Source: Candidatus Hermodarchaeota archaeon (GTDB lineage: Archaea > Asgardarchaeota > Lokiarchaeia > Sigyniarchaeales > SOKP01). From it: a DNA stretch of 28,280 bases. The stretch covers positions 1 to 28,280 of the forward strand of contig JBHLLP010000046.1 of NCBI GenBank assembly GCA_048885525.1, read 5' to 3'. Shown here in pieces: positions 331 through 20,509 of this stretch. The translations under genes and the position numbers were made by a program. Numbering within the stretch: the first letter of the stretch is position 1; the number at the start of each line of letters is the position of its first letter. The notes under the pieces were generated by a model that saw nothing but the letters and a program-made list of their open reading frames with translations, made no database searches and was not told the origin of the DNA.

Positions 331-495
331 CTAGTCCTTTGAAATTATTTCCTTTTTAATCTCTTTTCTTCTTATAATAGATAAGAATTCTTTTGTATCG
401 GGAAAAACATAGACAAGGGCTTCACCGTCATCGTCAATTATAATCTCTTTATAGAATTTTCCTTTAACTTTGCTATTTAAATCATTCAAAATCAT
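331..495 (-). CDS. Small hypothetical protein, 54 aa (not in the ORF track)
   Basis: Manual translation gives MILNDLNSKVKGKFYKEIIIDDDGEALVYVFPDTKEFLSIIRRKEIKKEIISKD*. It fills the gap between two minus-strand genes and has protein-like composition. Confidence 0.6.
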   Translation of the reverse strand: MILNDLNSKVKGKFYKEIIIDDDGEALVYVFPDTKEFLSIIRRKEIKKEIISKD

Positions 496-9047: not shown

Positions 9048-9404
9048 TTAGATAGTATTTTCCAATTTACTTTTTAATTTTGAATAAATAGCATTTATAC
9101 GCAACCCTACTTCTTCAAGAAGCTTACTTTTTTTATCTAATTCTAGTTTTTGATTATTATCAGGACTATCTGTGAATTCTTTTAAATCTTTTTTTGTTGT
9201 AATTTGTTTATGATAAAAGTGAAATAAATCAACAATTTTTTGAAGAGCTTCTGCCCTAAATTCTACAATTTTTCTACGCAGTTCTTTTGCTGACAGCGTA
9301 CCAAGACTCACATTATCAATTGCCCTTCTTAAAGCTGTAAGATTATCATTATCAAACATTATGTTTTCTACCATTTTATAGAGATTTTCTTTCTTTGCTA
9401 ACAT
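9048..9404 (-). CDS. Small helical hypothetical protein (~118 aa), last gene of the membrane operon
   Basis: The ORF track starts at 9419, but GAGGAG precedes the ATG at 9404, four nt after the upstream stop codon. Confidence 0.75.
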   Translation of the reverse strand: MLAKKENLYKMVENIMFDNDNLTALRRAIDNVSLGTLSAKELRRKIVEFRAEALQKIVDLFHFYHKQITTKKDLKEFTDSPDNNQKLELDKKSKLLEEVGLRINAIYSKLKSKLENTI

Positions 9405-9408
9405 GCTT

Positions 9409-12400
9409 TTACTCCTCAAAAATATAATTTTGAATTTTTATAAAGAAACTATAAATATATTCATATAGATCTTCCGCAAGTTCCTCTAAATTTTGGTTCT
9501 CCAAGTTGATTAAATCATACTTTTCAATATAACTTTCAAATTCTTCTTTGGAAAAAGGAAATTCTTCTGATTTTGCTAAGTTAATTATAAATTTTTCTAC
9601 TTCATTTATAGATAAAATTTGATTTACATTATAGAATTGTTTATAGACATTCAGAAGGTATTTTTTAATTAGCCCATGTCCAATTTTAATAGCTTTTTCG
9701 TAGTCATTATGGTTGATGAACCTAAAGATCTTGAAGATATCATAATTGAAGTCACTAAATTCGCGTGCAAATGCATCTTTTAAATTTTCCTTTTGAATAA
9801 TATATTTTCGAGGTTTTGGTCGAAATATATTCGTCAAATCTTCTGATTTTTGGATCTCTTTTTCGATCACATCAACCTGATTCTCAGAATCTGCCCTACT
9901 TTTTGCTTCAAAATAATCCTCTAATGCTCGTTGATATTGATCACCAACAGAATATGAAGTTCTTAATGCTTCTGAACCACTTGCTCGTTTTGGATGATTT
10001 TCCACTAAGTAGCCATGTTTCACTAATAAATTGAATATGTCATCTCTGATTTTATTGATGTGTTCTTTTTTATTTGTCTTTTGTGAAATTCTTGGATATA
10101 AGATTTCTTTTAGATGTTTTTTGATTTTTTGTTTATATAGATTACCTATTTGATCAAAATTTTGAACTTCACTAAGAAAACTTATTATTTCATTTCGATA
10201 GGGAAAATACCTTCCTAAATCTTTTTCGAATATAGTCTTTTTAGCCTGTTCTAAGATTCTTCGTTCGCTCTGTGTTAAATTGTACCCTTGATCTTGCATA
10301 AACTCCACAATTTCTCCGTATGGGAGGATCTTTCTACTTTTTATATTGTTCCAATCTACTACTACAGGGAATGGTTGATATATATCATCTCTTCGCACCA
10401 AAATTTCGTTATTTTTCATATTCATTAAATAATCAATTTGATATGTGTCATTTCTTTTGGAGGTATAATATCCTGTACCATATAATTCTTGGAGATTCAT
10501 TTGGGCTTTCAATGTAGCAATATCGCGTTTATCTGTTGCTCTAAATGAAATAATATTATTGAAATAATTGAACAAATGAGAATGGAGATATCTTATTTGA
10601 TTTGCCGAAAAAACCAAACCAAACTCGTGGTGAATAAGAGGATCTAAGAAAGTATTAATCTTACCATAATTCATTTTCCAGTCTAAAAAGTTGGCATTGA
10701 AAAAGATATCAACATTTGGGATAAAAATGATTTTCTTATGAAACTCATCTCTATGTTTGATATAATGTATAATCTTTGCAATAATCAGAAATGTAGAGAA
10801 TGTTTTTTTATCAAGATCTCTTAAACCAGACAGATCAATAATCACCGTTTTATCTGTTTTTACAAAATCATTGGCATGAATTCTATCCTTACCTGAGATG
10901 TTCTGAAAAAATGAAAGATCTTGATGAGTAAAATCAGAAAATACTGCTAACAATGAATCATTAATCGGATTTTTTTGCCAATCATTTAAAGTCTGCATAT
11001 CCAACTCAATTGATTTAAGATCCATGTCGGGATTTTTTTTAATCATATTTCGAAGCATGTCAATGATCCTTTGGTCTTTTTGGAACGCCATTCCGAATGC
11101 GTCAAACATGTATTCAAGATATTCGGCATTATCTTCTTCATAAGGAATATCAGATATGAGAGGGTCAATAGTAAATGCACTTCCTAACTTAAAGTAGAGA
11201 ATCCTATTTATCAATTGGGAGTTTTTGAAATAATCTAATAAAATTGACCATAACCCATTGAAATCAAATATTAAGCATGGAACACCAACTTTTATCAACT
11301 CTGCAACTATTTTCATAGCTACTAATTCACGATGTATAGGCATCCCATTTACAATCAATAAACTCTTAATTTGTTCTTCCGTAAATCCTACAGGTACTTC
11401 ACTTTCAAGTACTTCTGTATTAACAGTATGGCCAATTATAATAAAATTCTGTAGATATAGTGGTGTATTGAATTCAGCAGCAATTTTGGTAATAACTCCT
11501 TTTTTAAGAAGATCTACAACTGTAGTAAGAGGTGCTAGATTAATCCCTTGCACCATGAGTTCGTATAATTGAGTGCCATTTAACCGGAAATGGTTATTTT
11601 TTAATATTGAAAATAGGTACCCAGATAATAGTTTTTGGGATCTTAAATCCTCGATCCTATAATTTTGAAAATGTAAATTAAAAGCATCCTTTAGTGATTC
11701 GATTTTATAAGTTAGATCTTCTTCAAGTTCGTTAAAATTTTCGCGTTTTATAGTAGTAATGAATTTATAGGAATTAACTGACATAGTTAATATGCTATAC
11801 CACATACCTAATTGATAACCTAACCATTCTTCAGCGTCAGCATCGTTTTTAATTTCTTTCCAAAGTAATTTTTGTTGGGTTTCTTCATGAACATAGTTTA
11901 AACCGTGCTTATAAAACTCATAATATCCAATTGGTTTATTTCTTAAAGTATAACTAAATGAGAGTTTATAATTGTTTAAACTTTCAAAAAATTTCTCTGC
12001 AAGGCAAAATGGACTTTTTAAAATATACTTAAGATTTACCATCTTCAACCCAAGTAAAAGGTGATTATTGATTTGAAGAAATAAACTAAAGGGAAATTCT
12101 CGCAATTTATAAAAATGGATATTTTTAAAAGGATCTACTAACACACAATTTTCTGTATGTAATAATTTGCTTTTCGTAATTTGAAAGAACACAGCACGCC
12201 ACCAAATCATTAAAAAACCAATTGAAATTAAACAATTAATGCAGATAACATATATCATATTAATTGAAATGGAAAAAAGGATGTAGTCGAAATAGACTAT
12301 TATTACTATAATGAATAGGGCTTTTCTAAGAATACTAAAACTATTACCATTCAATAATTTCTTTTTATTTACTAAACCAATCGATGTTGTTACTTCTTCT

Positions 12401-12528
12401 TTTATGAAAAAAGTCCTTAAAGCATTTATTAAAGCGGTATCTGATAGTAATATAATTTTGAAATGATGGAAATTTGCCACAAAATTACTTTTTAAAGTAT
12501 TAGTATATTTTTTAATATAATATCTCAT
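9409..12528 (-). CDS. Membrane-anchored HerA/VirB4-like protein with degenerate Walker motifs; 3' part of a probably frameshifted ~1272-aa gene (13228-9409)
   Basis: IIIGHTVN...VPVGF...LLIVNGMPIHRE...GVPCLIFDFNG, VIIDLSGL, IIFIPNVD and GLVFSANQ...NIISFRATD follow the HerA/VirB4 motif order. GKS/T and DEAH are absent. There are two TM helices near the N-terminus. Confidence 0.8.
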   Translation of the reverse strand: MRYYIKKYTNTLKSNFVANFHHFKIILLSDTALINALRTFFIKEEVTTSIGLVNKKKLLNGNSFSILRKALFIIVIIVYFDYILFSISINMIYVICINCLISIGFLMIWWRAVFFQITKSKLLHTENCVLVDPFKNIHFYKLREFPFSLFLQINNHLLLGLKMVNLKYILKSPFCLAEKFFESLNNYKLSFSYTLRNKPIGYYEFYKHGLNYVHEETQQKLLWKEIKNDADAEEWLGYQLGMWYSILTMSVNSYKFITTIKRENFNELEEDLTYKIESLKDAFNLHFQNYRIEDLRSQKLLSGYLFSILKNNHFRLNGTQLYELMVQGINLAPLTTVVDLLKKGVITKIAAEFNTPLYLQNFIIIGHTVNTEVLESEVPVGFTEEQIKSLLIVNGMPIHRELVAMKIVAELIKVGVPCLIFDFNGLWSILLDYFKNSQLINRILYFKLGSAFTIDPLISDIPYEEDNAEYLEYMFDAFGMAFQKDQRIIDMLRNMIKKNPDMDLKSIELDMQTLNDWQKNPINDSLLAVFSDFTHQDLSFFQNISGKDRIHANDFVKTDKTVIIDLSGLRDLDKKTFSTFLIIAKIIHYIKHRDEFHKKIIFIPNVDIFFNANFLDWKMNYGKINTFLDPLIHHEFGLVFSANQIRYLHSHLFNYFNNIISFRATDKRDIATLKAQMNLQELYGTGYYTSKRNDTYQIDYLMNMKNNEILVRRDDIYQPFPVVVDWNNIKSRKILPYGEIVEFMQDQGYNLTQSERRILEQAKKTIFEKDLGRYFPYRNEIISFLSEVQNFDQIGNLYKQKIKKHLKEILYPRISQKTNKKEHINKIRDDIFNLLVKHGYLVENHPKRASGSEALRTSYSVGDQYQRALEDYFEAKSRADSENQVDVIEKEIQKSEDLTNIFRPKPRKYIIQKENLKDAFAREFSDFNYDIFKIFRFINHNDYEKAIKIGHGLIKKYLLNVYKQFYNVNQILSINEVEKFIINLAKSEEFPFSKEEFESYIEKYDLINLENQNLEELAEDLYEYIYSFFIKIQNYIFEE

Positions 12529-13228
12529 ACGTTCTAGTTTTTTTTTCAGTAAGAATTCCTTTGCAATGATAAAATATAGAAAAATAAATTGATGTAGTAA
12601 AAGATTCGATAGATCTCAACGAAGAATATCGTGTACTTTCTTTATCGAAAACATTTATTATAGGTTTTTGGATGACTTGATATGAAAAGGGAATTCTAAT
12701 TCTTTTGGAACTTAATGCTTTTATAAACTGTTTTATTGTAGGATGAATATTTTGAGGTATAACCTTTACTTCAAAAATTCGAAGAACTAAATGGGTAAGA
12801 TCATTTCGATCAGTACAATATAATGTAGAATATTCGTTTCTATCATACCAAAATACTAAATGTTCAAATGGATTAAATATAGTCTTATTTGCGAACGTAA
12901 ATGAAAATAAATTCCTCAATAAAAAGAATTGATCATGGAAGACAACAATAAATATGCATAATAAGAAAATCCCAATCACAGTTGATATCAGAGGATTATG
13001 ATTTATAATATAAGATGAAAGTATCACAGAAAATGTTAACACTGAAAGAAATATTGTTTTTACAATGGTTAGAACATTATTGATATCTTTAAATGAAGGA
13101 TTCACATCCCATATGTCAAAATACTTATTTTTTTGTCCATCTTCCTCTTCAGTTTTTTCCACTTTCTTTAGTTTGTTTTTTCTTTGAGAAATGCTATGTT
13201 CATCTGCACGTATATAGGTTTTTACCAT
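12512..13228 (-). CDS. 2-TM membrane protein; probably the 5' part of the frameshifted HerA/VirB4-like gene
   Basis: Removing one base from the T9 run at 12538-12546 gives ...GILTEKKLERMRYYIKK..., joining this ORF to 9409-12528. It is also similar to a second repeat in the downstream ORF. Confidence 0.8.
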   Translation of the reverse strand: MVKTYIRADEHSISQRKNKLKKVEKTEEEDGQKNKYFDIWDVNPSFKDINNVLTIVKTIFLSVLTFSVILSSYIINHNPLISTVIGIFLLCIFIVVFHDQFFLLRNLFSFTFANKTIFNPFEHLVFWYDRNEYSTLYCTDRNDLTHLVLRIFEVKVIPQNIHPTIKQFIKALSSKRIRIPFSYQVIQKPIINVFDKESTRYSSLRSIESFTTSIYFSIFYHCKGILTEKKTRTYEILY

Positions 13229-13229
13229 T

Positions 13230-14093
13230 TTAGATACACTCTTTACGAAATAGTTTAATATAAATAAAAATTAAGATGGCACTCGTACCACAAAAAACTA
13301 GTGACCAGGTATTTATACTCCCCAACTTGGCAGGAAAATAACTAATCTCAATTGATATTATCAATCCAAGAGAAATAGTTAGAATTATTAATCCAAATAA
13401 GAAATACTTATAAATTTCTTTAATAGAATTTTGATATATTAGATTTTTTTTAAGAGGTCCTTGAATGCTAATTCCTCTTTTGCCTTTTGAATCAATTGAA
13501 TTTCTTATAGAATGCAAAGCGATTGATTTCTCAAGCTTTTTAGCATTGAATTCATTATCAAGATCTTTTTGAACACTCTGCTCTAGATTTTTGATTTTTT
13601 GGATAATTAAAGGTTTTAATGTGCTTACATCATTTTGTTTATGTTTAATACCAGGGGAAAGAAAAGAAAATAACTCTAAATAGGATGATCCCATAAAATT
13701 TGTATTATTTATAGTTTTATGGAGATTCGGAACTTCTAATTTGCATAGGTCAAAATAAATGTTAAACATCGCTTTAATATACTGAATAGGAATTTCGCCT
13801 TTATTACGTAGAAATAAAGCCTCAGAATCTCTCACAATATCAATCTGCTCATCTTTAAAGATATGAATCTGTAAATTCTTATCAAAAATCTGATTGATTG
13901 ATGTCATATATTGGAATAAAGTCTCCCCTGAGCTTCTTTTACGGGGCTTCACGCCAAGATTTATCCCAATTTCATCTAATCGATTACTTGTTAAAATAAA
14001 ACTAACTACAGCTAACTTCTTGTAATTTTTAGTTTGTTTACATATCTGAATTAAGTTTTTCAATTTCATATCATCAATATAATTCTTATCCAT
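13230..14093 (-). CDS. Hypothetical protein with an N-terminal helical (possibly HEPN-like) domain and 2 C-terminal TM helices
   Basis: 287 aa with a GGAG RBS in the end of the upstream gene. Hydrophobic segments are FLFGLIILTISLGLIISI and WSLVFCGTSAILIFIYI. Confidence 0.8.
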   Translation of the reverse strand: MDKNYIDDMKLKNLIQICKQTKNYKKLAVVSFILTSNRLDEIGINLGVKPRKRSSGETLFQYMTSINQIFDKNLQIHIFKDEQIDIVRDSEALFLRNKGEIPIQYIKAMFNIYFDLCKLEVPNLHKTINNTNFMGSSYLELFSFLSPGIKHKQNDVSTLKPLIIQKIKNLEQSVQKDLDNEFNAKKLEKSIALHSIRNSIDSKGKRGISIQGPLKKNLIYQNSIKEIYKYFLFGLIILTISLGLIISIEISYFPAKLGSINTWSLVFCGTSAILIFIYIKLFRKECI

Positions 14094-14096
14094 AGA

Positions 14097-14834
14097 TTAG
14101 TCTCCACCCTCAATAAATGAATTTATTATATTTTCTAGTTCAATTTCTTGTGAATTTTGACTATTCGTCTTATATTTGAGCTCTTCTTGGGCAATTAATT
14201 TATCTAAATCTAACGGTTCTTGAATATGATTAAGAACTTTTTCCACCATAGTTTCAGGTGTTTTTTCCACATTATCGAAGGTATTTAATGTACGGAAGTA
14301 GAAAATAGTAAAAGGAAAAATTAGCATAAAGGCAATCAAATGGAAAATATAACCGATATCAAAATGATATAGGTAAATAAATTCTGTATTATAATCTACG
14401 ATTTGTAAGAAAGGAAAATAAAGTCGTTGAGGGGTGAGGTACATGATGGGAAATGCTATGATATAAAACAAATTTAATATAAGGGATGTGATAAGTAAAT
14501 AACTATAAGGACGGTAATTTGCAATAGATTTGACCCTTTCTACATCTTTAAATAACATAATATAACCTGAAAGTATAAGAGAACCTAAAAAAATAATATT
14601 AAGAGGAAGTGGGACAGACAGATTTTCGGGACGTAGAGCTTCATTTAGCTGAGAACTGGGGATTAATAAAGTAGACCATTCTTTAAATATATTATATTTC
14701 CATGAAACAATAAGCTCATAATCTAGAGTATATATTTGAAAAGAATACCATTCTACAAATAAAGAAAGAAATAATAAAATGAGACCACATAAAAAACTTA
14801 TTTTAAATATTTTTATGGTACTAATGGCTATCAA
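14097..14834 (-). CDS. 4-TM membrane protein with an acidic C-terminal tail
   Basis: 245 aa with four hydrophobic segments. The TTG start overlaps the upstream TGA (TTGA at 14831-14834). Confidence 0.8.
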   Translation of the reverse strand: MIAISTIKIFKISFLCGLILLFLSLFVEWYSFQIYTLDYELIVSWKYNIFKEWSTLLIPSSQLNEALRPENLSVPLPLNIIFLGSLILSGYIMLFKDVERVKSIANYRPYSYLLITSLILNLFYIIAFPIMYLTPQRLYFPFLQIVDYNTEFIYLYHFDIGYIFHLIAFMLIFPFTIFYFRTLNTFDNVEKTPETMVEKVLNHIQEPLDLDKLIAQEELKYKTNSQNSQEIELENIINSFIEGGD

Positions 14835-17179
14835 TCCTCAAGAAATGAACTGTATTTGTCTATTAAATCATTTTTAACTTTGAGTTCGTGAGCATCGGGC
14901 TCTGACATATCCTCTTCAAATAATTTAACTTGCTCAACTTTTTTTTTCATTACTTTGTCCATGTGATATAAACGCGCATTATCCTTCTCGATTTTCTTAA
15001 GAATTGGAGAATCAGGATTCTTTCCCAAAATTTCATACCCGAATTGTTCCATAAGCTTTGGAGGAAACCTTTCATTAATTAATACTAAACTCGTTTCATC
15101 TAAGCCTAAATCTCTTTGATAATATGGAGTAGCAAATAGTTGTTTGATATGACCTTTATGTTTATTATATTTAATATAAATATACCCTATAATTATCGTA
15201 TATAAACTAATAATTCCATATCCTAAATTAATGACTAATTTTAATAATGAAAATCCTTGAAATAAGACTATTAAAAGTAATACAAACCCATAAACAATAA
15301 ATGGGGTTGAAGCTATTCTTATCTCTATCATGAATCTTTTCGCTACTTCGCTATTTAACTCGATTGCACTTTTCTTCTCTGAGTATGTCTCAATAAGAAA
15401 GTATTTCTGATCGATATAATGTAAAAAATCGGATAATTTAGAAATATCGACAACATGAATATTTGAATGTCTTTGGTATGCAAATGGAACAAGTTTTTCC
15501 GTAAAACCTACATTGTTTTTACTTACTATGAGAGGCTCGATTAACACTTCATATTGTAATGGTCCTGAGCGAAGAAATAAGGTTTTATGAGTAATCGTTT
15601 TTTCTGGATAAATTTCAATGTGAAGATATTGCATTATATATTCTAACAATTCTCCACTACTTGCTAAATCATTAATAATAGTTACCTCTGCTTTCTGAAG
15701 AGCTTTTATGTATGATTGAGGGATCTTTTTGGTGAGAAAACTCCTTTCATTGTCATTTATAGGTTTGTAATCAATTGAGTCGGCTGAAACCATAAGTGTT
15801 CCTTCCAGTTTACTTATAATAATTGGGACTATACATATTAGGTCAAGAAATTCATGGATATGTATAGTCTTTAATGCTAGTGCATCAATTCCAGCAAATA
15901 CCGATCGAAGTTTTTGAGATTTCTCGATAATAGAGAAATCAGATGCCTTAACTTTTCTATATAATTTCTCTATAGTAATAAAATTTTCTTTATATTTGTT
16001 GGCTTCCCTTGACTTTTTAGTGTCTTCTACTTTTCGAGGTTCATCTAAAGTTCCTAAAAGCTTCTCCCCATCCTCATTAGGGAGAATAATTTCAGATTCA
16101 TCCTCTTCAAGCATTTCTTCATAATCTATATTCGATTTGTCATAATTATCTTGTTCAGTAACTCCAAGTTCCAGATTTTTGATCTCTTTTTGTGGTATGC
16201 TATGACTGCCTGTTGTTCGTGGATATTTAAATTTATCTTCAAACCATGGTTCAGATTCGTGTTCTTCTCTTACTTCATGCTTAATATTAATGTCCGTTTC
16301 AATATTAGGATTAAAGATGAAATCTCCATTTACATACTCTATCGTAATTCTTCTATTTTTAATCCATTCTTTACCATAGATTTCATACCAATCACGATAT
16401 TTTTCAGAATGTACAATAATATACCCATTTTTTTCTTTTGCGTATTGAAGTACAAATTTGTCAGCTTCAACACCACTTTGTATTTGATGTATAATCCTAT
16501 TGTCCTTCAGCTCTTCCAATTTTCTTTTATTATCGATTTGATGCTTTAAAGTATAATCGCAAAATATAGTTATGTTTTCAAAACCTTTAGATTTTAATAA
16601 TTCTCTCAATTCAATTAAATAACTAATCTTAGCAAGTTCTCCTTGTTTTCTATCACCCCCCATCCATGCAACATTTGAACCATCAATTATGATATCAGTT
16701 GATGGACTAAGGACGTATTTATAATCTGAAATATTTTTTTTGGGTTTGATTTTCCATTGCGGATGTTTTTGTTCTGAAATTATTGGTAAAGATGATCTTC
16801 TCTTTATAATTCTGTTTGAATTATTTTTTTCCTCCAAAAGAGGGAAATCATTTAATTTTTTTAATCGTACATATTGATTTGCTGTTTCAATGATTTTTTG
16901 TGCTGTTATTTGACCAATACCATTAATTTGTGTCAATTTTGCAACTGTAGATTGTGATAACTCTTTAGGTGAAAAAATTCCTTCTTTTTCTAAAATTTCA
17001 GCAAGATGAGGTCCAACGCCTTTCAAAACTGTTAAATCTTCCTTTACAATACTAGGGGTTAGATTCATCGCTTCTTGGTCTAAATGAGAGAAATATGCGT
17101 CAGATGTCTCTTCCCAATCATGCTCTTTTTCTACTCTACTCGACTTTTTTTTCAATAGATTTTGTTGGGTATCTGTCAT
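14831..17179 (-). CDS. Multidomain membrane protein: HhH pair + Zc3h12a/Regnase-like NYN (PIN) nuclease + acidic linker + uncharacterised domain + 2 TM
   Basis: DLTVLKGVGP...LTQINGIGQITAQKI is the HhH pair. IIIDGSNVAW...EADKFVLQYA...IIVHSEKYRDW...RRITI is the NYN/PIN domain. Two TM helices lie near residues 625-670. Confidence 0.85.
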   Translation of the reverse strand: MTDTQQNLLKKKSSRVEKEHDWEETSDAYFSHLDQEAMNLTPSIVKEDLTVLKGVGPHLAEILEKEGIFSPKELSQSTVAKLTQINGIGQITAQKIIETANQYVRLKKLNDFPLLEEKNNSNRIIKRRSSLPIISEQKHPQWKIKPKKNISDYKYVLSPSTDIIIDGSNVAWMGGDRKQGELAKISYLIELRELLKSKGFENITIFCDYTLKHQIDNKRKLEELKDNRIIHQIQSGVEADKFVLQYAKEKNGYIIVHSEKYRDWYEIYGKEWIKNRRITIEYVNGDFIFNPNIETDINIKHEVREEHESEPWFEDKFKYPRTTGSHSIPQKEIKNLELGVTEQDNYDKSNIDYEEMLEEDESEIILPNEDGEKLLGTLDEPRKVEDTKKSREANKYKENFITIEKLYRKVKASDFSIIEKSQKLRSVFAGIDALALKTIHIHEFLDLICIVPIIISKLEGTLMVSADSIDYKPINDNERSFLTKKIPQSYIKALQKAEVTIINDLASSGELLEYIMQYLHIEIYPEKTITHKTLFLRSGPLQYEVLIEPLIVSKNNVGFTEKLVPFAYQRHSNIHVVDISKLSDFLHYIDQKYFLIETYSEKKSAIELNSEVAKRFMIEIRIASTPFIVYGFVLLLIVLFQGFSLLKLVINLGYGIISLYTIIIGYIYIKYNKHKGHIKQLFATPYYQRDLGLDETSLVLINERFPPKLMEQFGYEILGKNPDSPILKKIEKDNARLYHMDKVMKKKVEQVKLFEEDMSEPDAHELKVKNDLIDKYSSFLED

Positions 17180-17703: not shown

Positions 17704-17970
17704 GTGAAGCATACTTCTAAAAAATCAATTATATGCCCTTTATGTAATAAAAAAATTACAATAGGCGTAGAAGATTTCATTTTAAAAAATCGGAACCGTT
17801 ATGTGCATTTCCCTCACATTCATTTACATGGAGATCCCCTTCATGCTTTAATTTGCTATGTTAATTCAAATCTGGATATACACAATATAGGAATTATAAA
17901 AAGTATCGAGATATCAAGAGATTCTAAGACATTTACGCAGTTAATGAAAAAATGGACAAATCCTTACTAG
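17704..17970 (+). CDS. Small putative metal-binding protein (CPLC...HIHLHGDPLH)
   Basis: 88 aa with a GTG start, CxxC and a His-rich motif; it ends 13 nt before the helicase start. Confidence 0.75.
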   Translation: MKHTSKKSIICPLCNKKITIGVEDFILKNRNRYVHFPHIHLHGDPLHALICYVNSNLDIHNIGIIKSIEISRDSKTFTQLMKKWTNPY

Positions 17971-17983
17971 TAGGTGATGCCTA

Positions 17984-20509
17984 ATGACAATAACCGATTT
18001 TTCTGACGATATTGGGGATGATGAAATAGATACTGATTCTAATCGTGAAATTTTCAAATTTATTACAGATAAACGAATTTTACGAGTTCTTTTTGAAAGT
18101 AAAATATTCCTATTACGGGATATCCAAAAAGAAGCAATTAAAAAAGGTTTATTCTTCAGTAAATCATTTTTAGTATGTGCACCTTCGGGCAGTGGAAAAA
18201 CATTAATTGGGGAAGTTTGTGCTATAAATAATGTATTTCAGAAATTTGGGAAGTCAGTATATTTGGTACCATATAAAGCTCTTGCTTCAGAGAAGTACTT
18301 TCATTTTAAAAAGAGTTATGAACGATTTGGAGTGAATGTTGAGCTTTCGATAGGTGATTATGACGTTGATGATTCAAAACTACAAAAAGCAGATATTATA
18401 GTTACTACATATGAGAAAATGGATTCTATTTTAAGAAATTTTTATGATAAAGAATGGATTTGTGAAATTTCTACCATTATTATTGATGAGATTCATATAA
18501 TTGGTGAAAGCGATCGGGGATCAAGACTAGAATCACTAATAGTTAGATTAAATGAATTCCTCTGCAAACCACAATTAATCTCATTATCAGCAACCATTGC
18601 AAATCCCGAATTTTTTAATTCATGGTTATCCTCACTTGGAAATATAACCACGTTAATCAAGTCTGATGATCGTCCTGTACCACTCCACTATAAAATTGAA
18701 ATAACCCAAAATAAAGATTCTACAATTAAACGACTTGTAAAAGCGACTTTAGAAAAGGATGGACAAATTCTTATATTTCTAAATAAAAGAAGAGGCGCAC
18801 AACAATCCGCAGAGAATGTTAAAAATTTGGTTAAGAAATTTTTGAAAGATAATGAAATAAATGTATGTAAAGCTTTAGAAAGACGATTAACATCTATAAA
18901 AGGTGGGCATAAGGATTTAAGGAAAATAATTAAATATGGAGTAGCCTTCCATCATGCGGGACTACTTCCTAAAGAACGTAAAATCATTGAAGATAATTTT
19001 AGGAAGCGGATAATTAAACTAATATGCTGCACAACAACTCTTTCCGCTGGGATCAATGTTCCTGCACGTTTAGTCATTCTAAAAGACTTTAAGAAGTATG
19101 TAACCTCGGGACATAAAATAAAGAATTTTTCTGGATATCATGAGAATGGGGACGGGTTTGCATATTTTAAGCCATTTTCTGCAAATGAAGTATTTCAGAT
19201 CTTAGGAAGAGCTGGAAGACCAGGTCTGGATTCAATAGGATATGGAGTAATATTAGTGAAGGATATTGAAGAGAAAATGTGGGTTGAGGATCACTTTTTT
19301 GAAAATACATCTCTTCATACAAATCTAAAACCACGCTATAATGACCTTTATTCCGGGTTAAATAAGATTAATACACTGAAAGAACAAGTCCTTTTACGAA
19401 TCTATGAAGAAAAAAAGATTACAATTGAAAAATTAAAACAATTTTTCGAAAGAACATATTTTTGGTATGGTATTAAATATAAAATGAAAGAACAAAAGAT
19501 TCCGATTGAACAGTTATTAATGATAAAAGAGATTACCCCGATTAATATATTGAAACTTCACTCTAATGCTCAAAAAGTTAAATCTTTAAAGGAACATAAT
19601 TTTCAAATCAAATTATCTAAATTTAATGATTCAAACATTTCAGGATATATAAAGACGCCATATGGTGTCTATTATTCTCAATTTGATATTTTAACTGGAA
19701 TTCAGTGTAGTTGTGGGTTTGAGAATGGTATCTCCGATAATTTTGCGAATGAAGAATTTAGTTTCGAGTTCTGTGATCATGTATCAAGTTTCTTAATTTA
19801 CCTTATTCAACTTCCGGACGTTAATTTCCAGAAATATGTAGAAACTATCATTCCAAAATCTGTGAAGAACCAATATATCTTAAATTATTTGTTTGAGAAA
19901 GGCTTAATTATTAAAACTGATGATGGTAAAATTAAATGTTCTCAGTTTGGTAAACTAATAATTCGATTATATTTATATCCAGTTTCTGGTGTAATGATAC
20001 GTTATAAGCTTGAAAATGTTGAGATAAAAAGTTTCCAAGATTTAATTAAAGAAGCATATGAGATTTTAAAGGCTGAATTTCGTGTAAAGGATTATAAAAT
20101 GCTCCAACCGATTATTGAATGGGCTGATGAAGAACCCATTGACCAAATTTTAGAAAAATATAACATTATGGCAGGTGATTTATTCACAGTAAGGGATAAT
20201 TTAAAACGGATTATCATTTTTATAGGAATTATTGCAAATAATCTGAGTACGCATGGAATAGATTTACAAGATAAGTTGGTCAAAGTAGCTGAGATGGCAG
20301 AAACCCTCCAAATACGCTTACAGCATGGAATTCGAGAAGAGTTATTTGATTTAGTATTGAGGTTGAATGATGTTGCTCGTGTGAGAGCACGGATTTTATA
20401 TAATGCCGGTTATCATACCGCTACACAAGTAAAAAAAGAAAACCCTTATATTCTTAATCAAAAAACGGGGTTAGGAATAAATCTAATTAAGAAAATAATT
20501 AAAGGATGA
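17984..20509 (+). CDS. hel308: Hel308/Hjm (Ski2-like) SF2 helicase with an inserted SWIM zinc finger and C-terminal HhH
   Basis: Motifs APSGSGKT, PYKALASEK, DEIH, LSATIAN, HHAGL, TTTLSAGINVPA and QILGRAGRPG. The C-terminus has RARILYNAGY. AGGTGA RBS at ~17972. Confidence 0.88.
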   Translation: MTITDFSDDIGDDEIDTDSNREIFKFITDKRILRVLFESKIFLLRDIQKEAIKKGLFFSKSFLVCAPSGSGKTLIGEVCAINNVFQKFGKSVYLVPYKALASEKYFHFKKSYERFGVNVELSIGDYDVDDSKLQKADIIVTTYEKMDSILRNFYDKEWICEISTIIIDEIHIIGESDRGSRLESLIVRLNEFLCKPQLISLSATIANPEFFNSWLSSLGNITTLIKSDDRPVPLHYKIEITQNKDSTIKRLVKATLEKDGQILIFLNKRRGAQQSAENVKNLVKKFLKDNEINVCKALERRLTSIKGGHKDLRKIIKYGVAFHHAGLLPKERKIIEDNFRKRIIKLICCTTTLSAGINVPARLVILKDFKKYVTSGHKIKNFSGYHENGDGFAYFKPFSANEVFQILGRAGRPGLDSIGYGVILVKDIEEKMWVEDHFFENTSLHTNLKPRYNDLYSGLNKINTLKEQVLLRIYEEKKITIEKLKQFFERTYFWYGIKYKMKEQKIPIEQLLMIKEITPINILKLHSNAQKVKSLKEHNFQIKLSKFNDSNISGYIKTPYGVYYSQFDILTGIQCSCGFENGISDNFANEEFSFEFCDHVSSFLIYLIQLPDVNFQKYVETIIPKSVKNQYILNYLFEKGLIIKTDDGKIKCSQFGKLIIRLYLYPVSGVMIRYKLENVEIKSFQDLIKEAYEILKAEFRVKDYKMLQPIIEWADEEPIDQILEKYNIMAGDLFTVRDNLKRIIIFIGIIANNLSTHGIDLQDKLVKVAEMAETLQIRLQHGIREELFDLVLRLNDVARVRARILYNAGYHTATQVKKENPYILNQKTGLGINLIKKIIKG

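Follow-up and report, generated by a model that had tools for sequence, protein, structure and literature searches.

What does a membrane-tethered protein that joins a helix-hairpin-helix (HhH) head to a Zc3h12a-type NYN nuclease domain do in an Asgard archaeon, and is the nuclease a fixed part of it? The question is raised by gene A (protein P0002), the first gene of a six-gene operon (A to F) in a 28,280-nucleotide (nt) window of Candidatus Hermodarchaeota archaeon, contig JBHLLP010000046.1. All coordinates given here are positions within this window, which is AT-rich (about 29% GC). HhH and NYN are both known domain families. What is new is the architecture, in which HhH and NYN are followed by an unannotated domain and a transmembrane (TM) hairpin, together with the behavior of NYN as a cassette, its recurrent recruitment, and the operon that hosts it; we found no paper describing the architecture, the cassette behavior, the recruitment, or the operon.

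Gain and loss of the NYN domain among gene A orthologues

In gene A, the NYN domain sits between the HhH head and an acidic linker. Four of the 23 aligned orthologues carry it there (P0002, P0004, P0005, and a protein from genome G015), 18 have only a short linker at this site, and in P0006 the site is filled by an unrelated insert of about the same length. Among 153 representatives of the gene A family, a local NYN hidden Markov model finds the domain in about 10, leaving about 93% without it. The boundaries of the insertion are most easily seen by comparing P0005 (838 amino acids [aa]) with its orthologue from genome G005 (692 aa). The two proteins align without gaps over residues 1-174 (76% identity) and again across the last 519 residues (77% identity), and what separates them is a clean 146-aa indel equal to the NYN domain. 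Natural pairs of orthologues with and without NYN would allow direct comparison.

The domain also turns up at other positions and in another subunit. In P0123, it lies at the C terminus of the A protein (Pfam, 2.4e-13), and in two genomes (L060 and L074), it is fused to the C terminus of F (PF11977, 2.3e-13 and 2e-10). Maximum-likelihood phylogeny places the fused NYNs in three supported clades, which are interleaved with unfused NYN proteins: the main clade of insertions in the middle of A (support 100/99); P0102 and the F fusions, which group within a clade of NYNs from proteins of about 550 aa (99/94); and P0123, which groups with NYNs of other multidomain proteins (96/86). Three separately supported clades imply that the complex acquired NYN independently at least three times. 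Moreover, the insert region of A is hypervariable; P0006, P0047, and P0048 each carry unrelated sequence there. An earlier description of this locus, made from the DNA alone (hereafter the sequence-only reading), had suggested that NYN may be an exchangeable insert. Judging from sequence comparison, the absence of the domain from most of the family, the clean indel, and the repeated independent acquisition lend this view strong support. Fusion to a single membrane complex on at least three separate occasions makes an unusually clear genomic case that Zc3h12a-type nucleases and this complex work together.

Further NYN genes were observed outside the A and F fusions. A 557-aa protein with a C-terminal NYN (L024:8913-10586; G001 contig 151) lies beside another copy of gene A, which is truncated. 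The protein is a member of the family of about 550 aa, which is found in several genomes and from whose NYN lineage the F-fused NYNs derive. Two NYN genes of the Zc3h12a type, free-standing and each about 150-160 aa long, lie on contig 42 of genome G000 (L045:3389-3871, plus strand; L045:12681-13136, minus strand). One of them overlaps the end of an unannotated 828-aa open reading frame (ORF), and the other belongs to a small operon beside a bpMoxR AAA+/VWA pair, a context that resembles a conflict system.

Domain architecture of the gene A protein

The sequence-only reading described gene A as an HhH protein with a Regnase-type NYN domain, an acidic linker, and two TM helices, and our searches bear out this outline through Pfam matches and two adjacent hydrophobic helices. 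The tandem HhH, placed at about 16880-17040, corresponds to an HHH_5 match to residues 47-100 (E value, 3.8e-12) that spans positions 16880-17041. Likewise, the NYN domain, placed at about 16308-16695, is recovered as RNase_Zc3h12a (PF11977) at residues 162-290 (E value, 1.8e-17; 64 bits against a cutoff of 23), and a six-frame search of the genome agrees with this match. The linker that follows (residues 295-394) is indeed acidic, holding 29 Asp/Glu and 14 Lys/Arg residues, and the motifs that had been quoted (DGSN, EAD, HSEKYRD, DFSIIEK, GIDALALK, and LICIVPI) are all present in P0002. The start MTDTQQNLL is kept in the orthologue alignment, and the N terminus and the C-terminal KYSSFLED are both kept across 22 orthologues.

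We built an AlphaFold2 model of the protein on 23 orthologues; its mean predicted local distance difference test (pLDDT) score is 65, and its NYN part rests on four sequences. The head (residues 50-105) is modeled with confidence (pLDDT of about 85) and contains two HhH motifs in a five-helix bundle, while the stretch from 273 to 393 is disordered. Two long antiparallel helices (605-639 and 643-683) contain both hydrophobic segments, so the tethering to the membrane that had been proposed is predicted here as a hairpin of helices 624-646 and 648-669. The protein lacks a signal peptide, its N-terminal part runs to 620 aa, and four Lys/Arg residues come directly after the second TM helix, from which we infer that both termini are cytoplasmic. 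A VIA search of the PDB with this model returned HhH matches only. Whole-protein homology to RadA/Rad51 was considered and dismissed, as the full-length Foldseek match (E value, 5e-4; TM score, 0.07-0.2) covers the head only.

Two short motifs are conserved within otherwise variable or disordered sequence. The first, PWFEDKFKY (16223-16249, minus strand), lies in the linker, and its WF..KF core recurs in orthologues with and without NYN; it takes the form PWFE(D/E)KF.YSRL, with a related KWF..KF...WY in other orthologues. The second, KYSSFLED (14834-14857, minus strand), is the invariant C-terminal end of the protein. Both are candidate sites for the docking of partners. A complex prediction for the tail of A (residues 684-782) with residues 380-1039 of E scored 0.00, a result that counts neither for nor against binding.

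Table 1. Coordinates of gene A, its parts and motifs, and the other genes of the operon
Feature	Residues	Position	Strand	Remarks
Gene A (P0002), membrane-tethered HhH-NYN protein	1-782	14831-17179	-	ORF, 782 aa, intact
(HhH)2 domain, RadA/Rad51 N-terminal type	47-110	16850-17041	-	
Zc3h12a-type NYN/PIN-like nuclease cassette	158-294	16298-16708	-	PF11977, phmmer, Foldseek
DGSN	166-169	16673-16684	-	D166 = Regnase D141; N169 = N144
EADK	238-241	16457-16468	-	A239 at Regnase D225; D240 at D226
HSEKYRD	257-263	16391-16411	-	E259 at Regnase D244; D263 at D248
Acidic disordered linker	295-394	15998-16297	-	pLDDT <50
Conserved alpha/beta C-domain, family-defining	395-600	15380-15997	-	pLDDT 85-92
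DFSIIEK (C-domain)	414-420			
GIDALALK (C-domain)	430-437			
LICIVPI (C-domain)	447-453			
TM helical hairpin	TM1 624-646, TM2 648-669	15173-15310	-	Hydropathy 2.5 and 1.8
C-terminal helical region, read as cytoplasmic		14834-15130	-	Ends in KYSSFLED; orthologue alignment and model
Gene B		14097-14834	-	245 aa, 4-5 TM; start overlaps A stop by 4 nt
Gene C		13230-14093	-	287 aa, soluble N-domain and C-terminal 2-TM hairpin
Gene D		12512-13228	-	238 aa, 2 TM
Gene E		9409-12528	-	1039 aa, 2 TM and large cytoplasmic part
Gene F		9048-9419	-	123 aa, helical

Identity and catalytic positions of the NYN domain

Is the NYN domain of gene A likely to cut? We mapped its catalytic positions by aligning P0002 to the solved structures of ZC3H12B, ZC3H12C, and ZC3H12A (phmmer to structures; Table 1). 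Among the 10 NYNs fused to A, the equivalents of Regnase D141 and D226 are kept in 10/10, N144 is kept in 9/10, and the residue at D244 is acidic in 10/10. Invariant core acidic positions in 10 copies that span branch lengths of 0.2 to 0.9 suggest purifying selection on the active site. With these core positions retained in almost every fused copy, an active nuclease is plausible.

Alternatively, the domain may be catalytically dead in P0002 and serve as a nucleic acid- or protein-binding module, or persist as a neutral passenger. In P0002, D225 is replaced by Ala and Ser-Asn-Asp by His-Ser-Glu, the NYN domain is modeled with low confidence, and the insert is dispensable in most orthologues, all of which would fit a dead domain. 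However, NYNs of this archaeal clade, free-standing proteins included, normally have Ala-Asp rather than Asp-Asp at D225/D226, and the three core acidic positions persist in every fused copy despite deep divergence. We therefore regard loss of catalysis as unlikely; as far as the sequences can tell, the conservation pattern plausibly fits an active NYN nuclease better than a decaying remnant.

The description of the domain as Regnase-1-like stands at the level of the Pfam family and not beyond it: the Pfam scan of P0002 found neither a zf-CCCH nor another RNA-binding Pfam domain, and the nearest full-length sequence relatives found are bacterial NYN proteins. A homologue search restricted to the NYN region returned two members of the family and three NYN proteins of bacterial or metagenomic origin (454-458 aa; 30-38% identity); this search, which is word-limited, gave no sign of a special closeness to eukaryotic Regnases. 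By Foldseek, the NYN region matches ZC3H12C, MCPIP1, ZC3H12B, and KHNYN (7ndk, 3v33, 6sjd, and 9s2d) with a probability of 0.90-0.97, at a TMt of only 0.33-0.37 and a root mean square deviation of 10-13 Å over a region of the model with a pLDDT of 45-82. In their survey, Matelska et al. (2017; PMC5499597) listed only 23 archaeal members of RNase_Zc3h12a and gave the function of the bacterial members as unknown; no function is known for prokaryotic members of the family.

The conserved C-domain

The C-domain, an alpha/beta domain that is modeled with confidence, is the part that defines the gene A family. A profile of the C-terminal 385 aa gathered 233 representatives among 1.84 billion proteins. 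The domain has no Pfam match, a profile search against PDB sequences gave nothing below an E value of 0.25, and the ESM Atlas held no usable match for residues 395-782. A search of BFVD with the model of gene A, whose head and hairpin swamp fold searches, gave no match for the C-domain, and a VIA wide search with the same model returned generic helical hairpins only (residues 600-689). Thirteen residues are invariant: D432, P452, S465, Y471, G539, E548, P549, K562, Y568, N573, H575, K592, and E597. Of these, the polar residues D432, E548, K562, N573, H575, K592, and E597 hint at a functional site in this domain.

The sequence-only reading had compared the stretch at 414-453 to a degenerate PD-(D/E)XK fold, and this comparison gained no statistical support. 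When the C-domain alignment was compared with an alignment of Asgard Hjc proteins, hhalign gave a probability of 0.2% and an E value of 0.31 over 20 columns. Of the catalytic E...PD...(D/E)xK motif, D432 alone is conserved, and no ExK is: its position reads I-P-I-(K/I), with the proline invariant. One could still suppose that residues 395-600 are a degenerate Hjc-like fold and that A is a membrane-tethered, possibly dead, junction-binding protein. The predicted secondary structure, a helix at 384-412 followed by strands at 416-418, 433-442, and 445-455, agrees with how that fold begins, the invariant D432 stands directly before the second strand, and the only stretch aligned by hhalign is the matching alpha1-beta1. 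Canonical Hjc (PF01870) also went undetected in G000 and in the same-family genomes searched (0/18 and 0/12, in two partly overlapping draws), compared with its presence in 28/81 genomes across the phylum. Yet many other Asgard families likewise lack Hjc and have no gene A protein, and fold searches with the whole model, in which the domain was not searched alone, produced no restriction endonuclease-like match. Together with the negligible profile similarity and the invariant proline, these observations make an Hjc-like C-domain improbable.

The operon and its distribution

Gene A heads a tightly packed operon on the minus strand (9048-17179), whose genes overlap or abut. The order A-B-C-D/E-F is kept in about 40 of 57 related loci, and gene B is syntenic in about 40 loci. 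Five of the six operon proteins have no family match in Pfam, NCBIfam, PADLOC, or PHROG. For B to F, Pfam and NCBIfam returned nothing, and PADLOC and PHROGs returned noise only; the scan of the operon proteins against PADLOC-DB 2.0 gave one weak match, PDC-M46A on B (E value, 0.006). A HEPN reading of C was rejected, since C has no conserved Rx4-6H and its echo of Abi_C in the Atlas reached a TM score of 0.32-0.37 only. Given the tight packing, the synteny, and the fusion of NYN to F, it is plausible that A serves the complex encoded by this operon.

The operon is flanked by a DUF998 protein after it and by a small protein and Hel308 on the other side. The latter two (17704-20509, plus strand) are an 88-aa Cys/His-containing protein and a Hel308-type helicase, which are transcribed divergently from the operon at nearly every orthologous locus. 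The A family occurs in 90 of 134 genomes in the taxonomic family to which the window belongs and in 10 of the 13 genera of that family; elsewhere in the class, we found one weak match in a sister family and nothing else. Genomes of the family that carries A bear Hodarchaeota-type labels. Occurrence is patchy, with several copies in some genomes. Sequencing runs that contain this DNA are sediment metagenomes, the best of them possibly the source sample itself; no RNA run was found among them.

A predicted HerA/VirB4-fold subunit with eroded Walker motifs

Every other genome examined encodes D and E together as a single ORF of about 1270 aa. In this window, an A9 run (12537-12545, minus strand) contains one base too many (a +1 shift) and separates the two genes; the explanation may be an error in sequencing or assembly, a genuine frameshift, or a slippery site. 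In Foldseek, the model of E matches HerA (4d2i; E value, 3.3e-8), the DndH C-domain and VirB4 (7es4 and 4ag5; TMt, 0.63), and 7o42, as well as TrwK and TrwB; on the strength of this model, E is predicted to adopt a HerA-type P-loop fold. We assigned columns of E to the Walker motifs by what we take to be the order of motifs in HerA, in which IIDLS is presumably the strand before Walker B and IIFIPNVD the Walker B position. All 18 aligned orthologues read LIVNGxxxxR(E/D)L in place of the Walker A motif GxxGxGK[ST] and (I/V)P(N/H/Y/F)(I/V)D in place of the Walker B motif hhhh(D/E)E. With both motifs eroded in all orthologues, D/E is probably a HerA/VirB4-fold pseudo-ATPase, which would form a scaffold ring rather than a motor.

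Three further observations concern this subunit. Residues of about 841-862 of E are likely a winged-helix element, with the invariant motif HP.RASGSEALRTSYSVG. At two loci (L053:9098-12784 in Loki_b32 and G083:C64), a single ORF of about 1230 aa encodes the HhH head and the beginning of the C-domain of A fused directly to an E homologue, as if B, C, and D had been lost by deletion. There is also a second, more divergent type of D/E paralogue (33-40% identity), often in the same genomes (L081, L082, L083, L085, L086, L097, L099, and L102), and BLAST detected no homologues of A, B, or C beside it.

The resemblance of D/E to VirB4 raises the question of whether the operon encodes a machine for DNA transfer or uptake akin to conjugation or to Ced/Ted, built from a VirB4-like D/E and the membrane proteins B and C. 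In such a machine, the HhH head of A would be a cytoplasmic DNA receptor and NYN would process the transferred strand. The matches of D/E to VirB4/TrwK and TrwB besides HerA speak for it, as do the two pairs of TM helices (2 x 2 TM) ahead of the P-loop domain, the head of the RadA N-terminal domain (NTD) type, and Hel308 as a constant neighbor. The C-terminal hairpin of C is also weakly like type IV secretion system pilins in the Atlas (TM score, 0.49), a similarity that stays below 0.5. On the other hand, no orthologue retains intact Walker A and B motifs and the operon has no other ATPase, so there would be no motor; domain scans of the operon proteins detected no pilin, relaxase, or VirB6 family; and we found no paper linking Asgard archaea to a system of this kind. 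The lack of an active ATPase fits poorly with a conjugation- or Ced-like machine for DNA, and we consider this explanation to have little chance of being correct.

A possible role for the complex

We favor a model in which A is a membrane-held cytoplasmic adaptor in a complex of A to F, with NYN as an optional effector, and we give it an even chance of being right. A would face the cytoplasm, held at the membrane through its helical hairpin, and A, B, C, D/E, and F would be subunits of one membrane complex. The HhH head would bring nucleic acid, or a partner bound to nucleic acid, to the inner face of the membrane. Where present, NYN would act as a metal-dependent endonuclease that cuts the captured nucleic acid, with RNA as the substrate expected by default for the PF11977 family. 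The core function of the complex would be independent of the nuclease, given that NYN is absent in most orthologues. Our best guess for the operon as a whole is therefore a membrane-face nucleic acid-handling complex with NYN as an optional effector. A more specific version, which we put forward only tentatively, is an undescribed membrane machine specific to this Asgard family: a dead HerA/VirB4/FtsK-like ring would be anchored through four TM helices and supplied with nucleic acid by an HhH tether of the RadA-NTD type, and the machine would have captured Regnase-family NYN nucleases as effectors repeatedly and independently.

Several observations weigh against the adaptor model. HhH domains of the NusA-AR2 type can make protein contacts rather than bind DNA. 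The evidence that associates A with B to F consists of gene neighborhood and domain hopping. About one-third of the good-quality genomes in the class do without the system, which must then be dispensable. As for the effector, the NYN model is of low confidence (pLDDT, 45-82), P0002 has Ala at the D225 position and HSE instead of SND, and the A-fused copies differ at the D248 position (D, E, or N).

A related possibility is that the operon is a defense system against viruses or mobile elements, in which a HerA-like ring scaffolds a swappable nuclease, here NYN. SIR2-HerA and DUF4297-HerA are defense systems that serve as models for such a pairing of a HerA ring with a nuclease effector. This explanation overlaps with the adaptor model rather than excluding it. 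It would account for an effector-like domain that moves between subunits and positions through independent acquisitions, for the hypervariable insert site, and for the patchy distribution with multiple copies in some genomes; furthermore, the nearest structural neighbors of D/E include defense HerA complexes and DndH, and a solo NYN gene elsewhere in the genome adjoins the conflict-type bpMoxR-VWA system. Taken together, the swappable effector, the hypervariable site, the distribution, and this solo NYN incline us toward a role in conflict or surveillance. However, no PADLOC match rose above noise, most systems have no recognizable effector, and the HerA-like protein lacks functional Walker motifs, whereas defense HerAs are active ATPases. 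In addition, the chromosomal context is fixed across the family, with Hel308 on one side and the same genes on the other, and is not that of a variable island; the fixed position and the many members without an effector incline us against a classical defense island. Overall, we rate a dedicated defense system as a rather doubtful, if realistic, explanation.

Establishing the function of the host complex would extend the biology of the lineage closest to eukaryotes by a new membrane system and would give archaeal Regnase-type nucleases their first functional context.

Comparison with known systems

The HhH head of gene A resembles the N-terminal domain of RadA/Rad51/Dmc1 and the AR2 domain of NusA, but no RecA core follows it. 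At the level of the complex, the closest likeness is to HerA-NurA, SIR2-HerA, DUF4297-HerA, and VirB4/FtsK, with which E shares a HerA/VirB4 P-loop fold (E value, 3e-8). D/E has a membrane anchor, as VirB4/FtsK do, and is genetically coupled to a nuclease domain, as in the HerA-nuclease pairs. It differs from HerA, VirB4, and FtsK in reading NG...R(E/D) at Walker A and (I/V)P.(I/V)D at Walker B, and no ATPase activity would be expected from these sequences. In contrast to the HerA-nuclease pairs, the nuclease here is NYN, not NurA, SIR2, or PD-(D/E)XK, and only a minority of members have it.

With Regnase-1/ZC3H12A-D, N4BP1, and KHNYN, gene A shares PF11977 (64 bits), including DGSNVA, D226, an acidic equivalent of D244, and the YRD motif, as well as the placement of the nuclease beside a nucleic acid-binding module. 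That module is (HhH)2 rather than a CCCH zinc finger or KH domain; moreover, D225 is replaced by Ala and SND by HSE, the protein has a membrane anchor, and NYN is an optional cassette in an otherwise conserved protein. Finally, an endonuclease domain at the cytoplasmic face of the membrane recalls RNase Y and RNase E, by functional analogy only. Their folds are unrelated and theirs is a housekeeping role, whereas the nuclease of gene A is dispensable and lineage specific.

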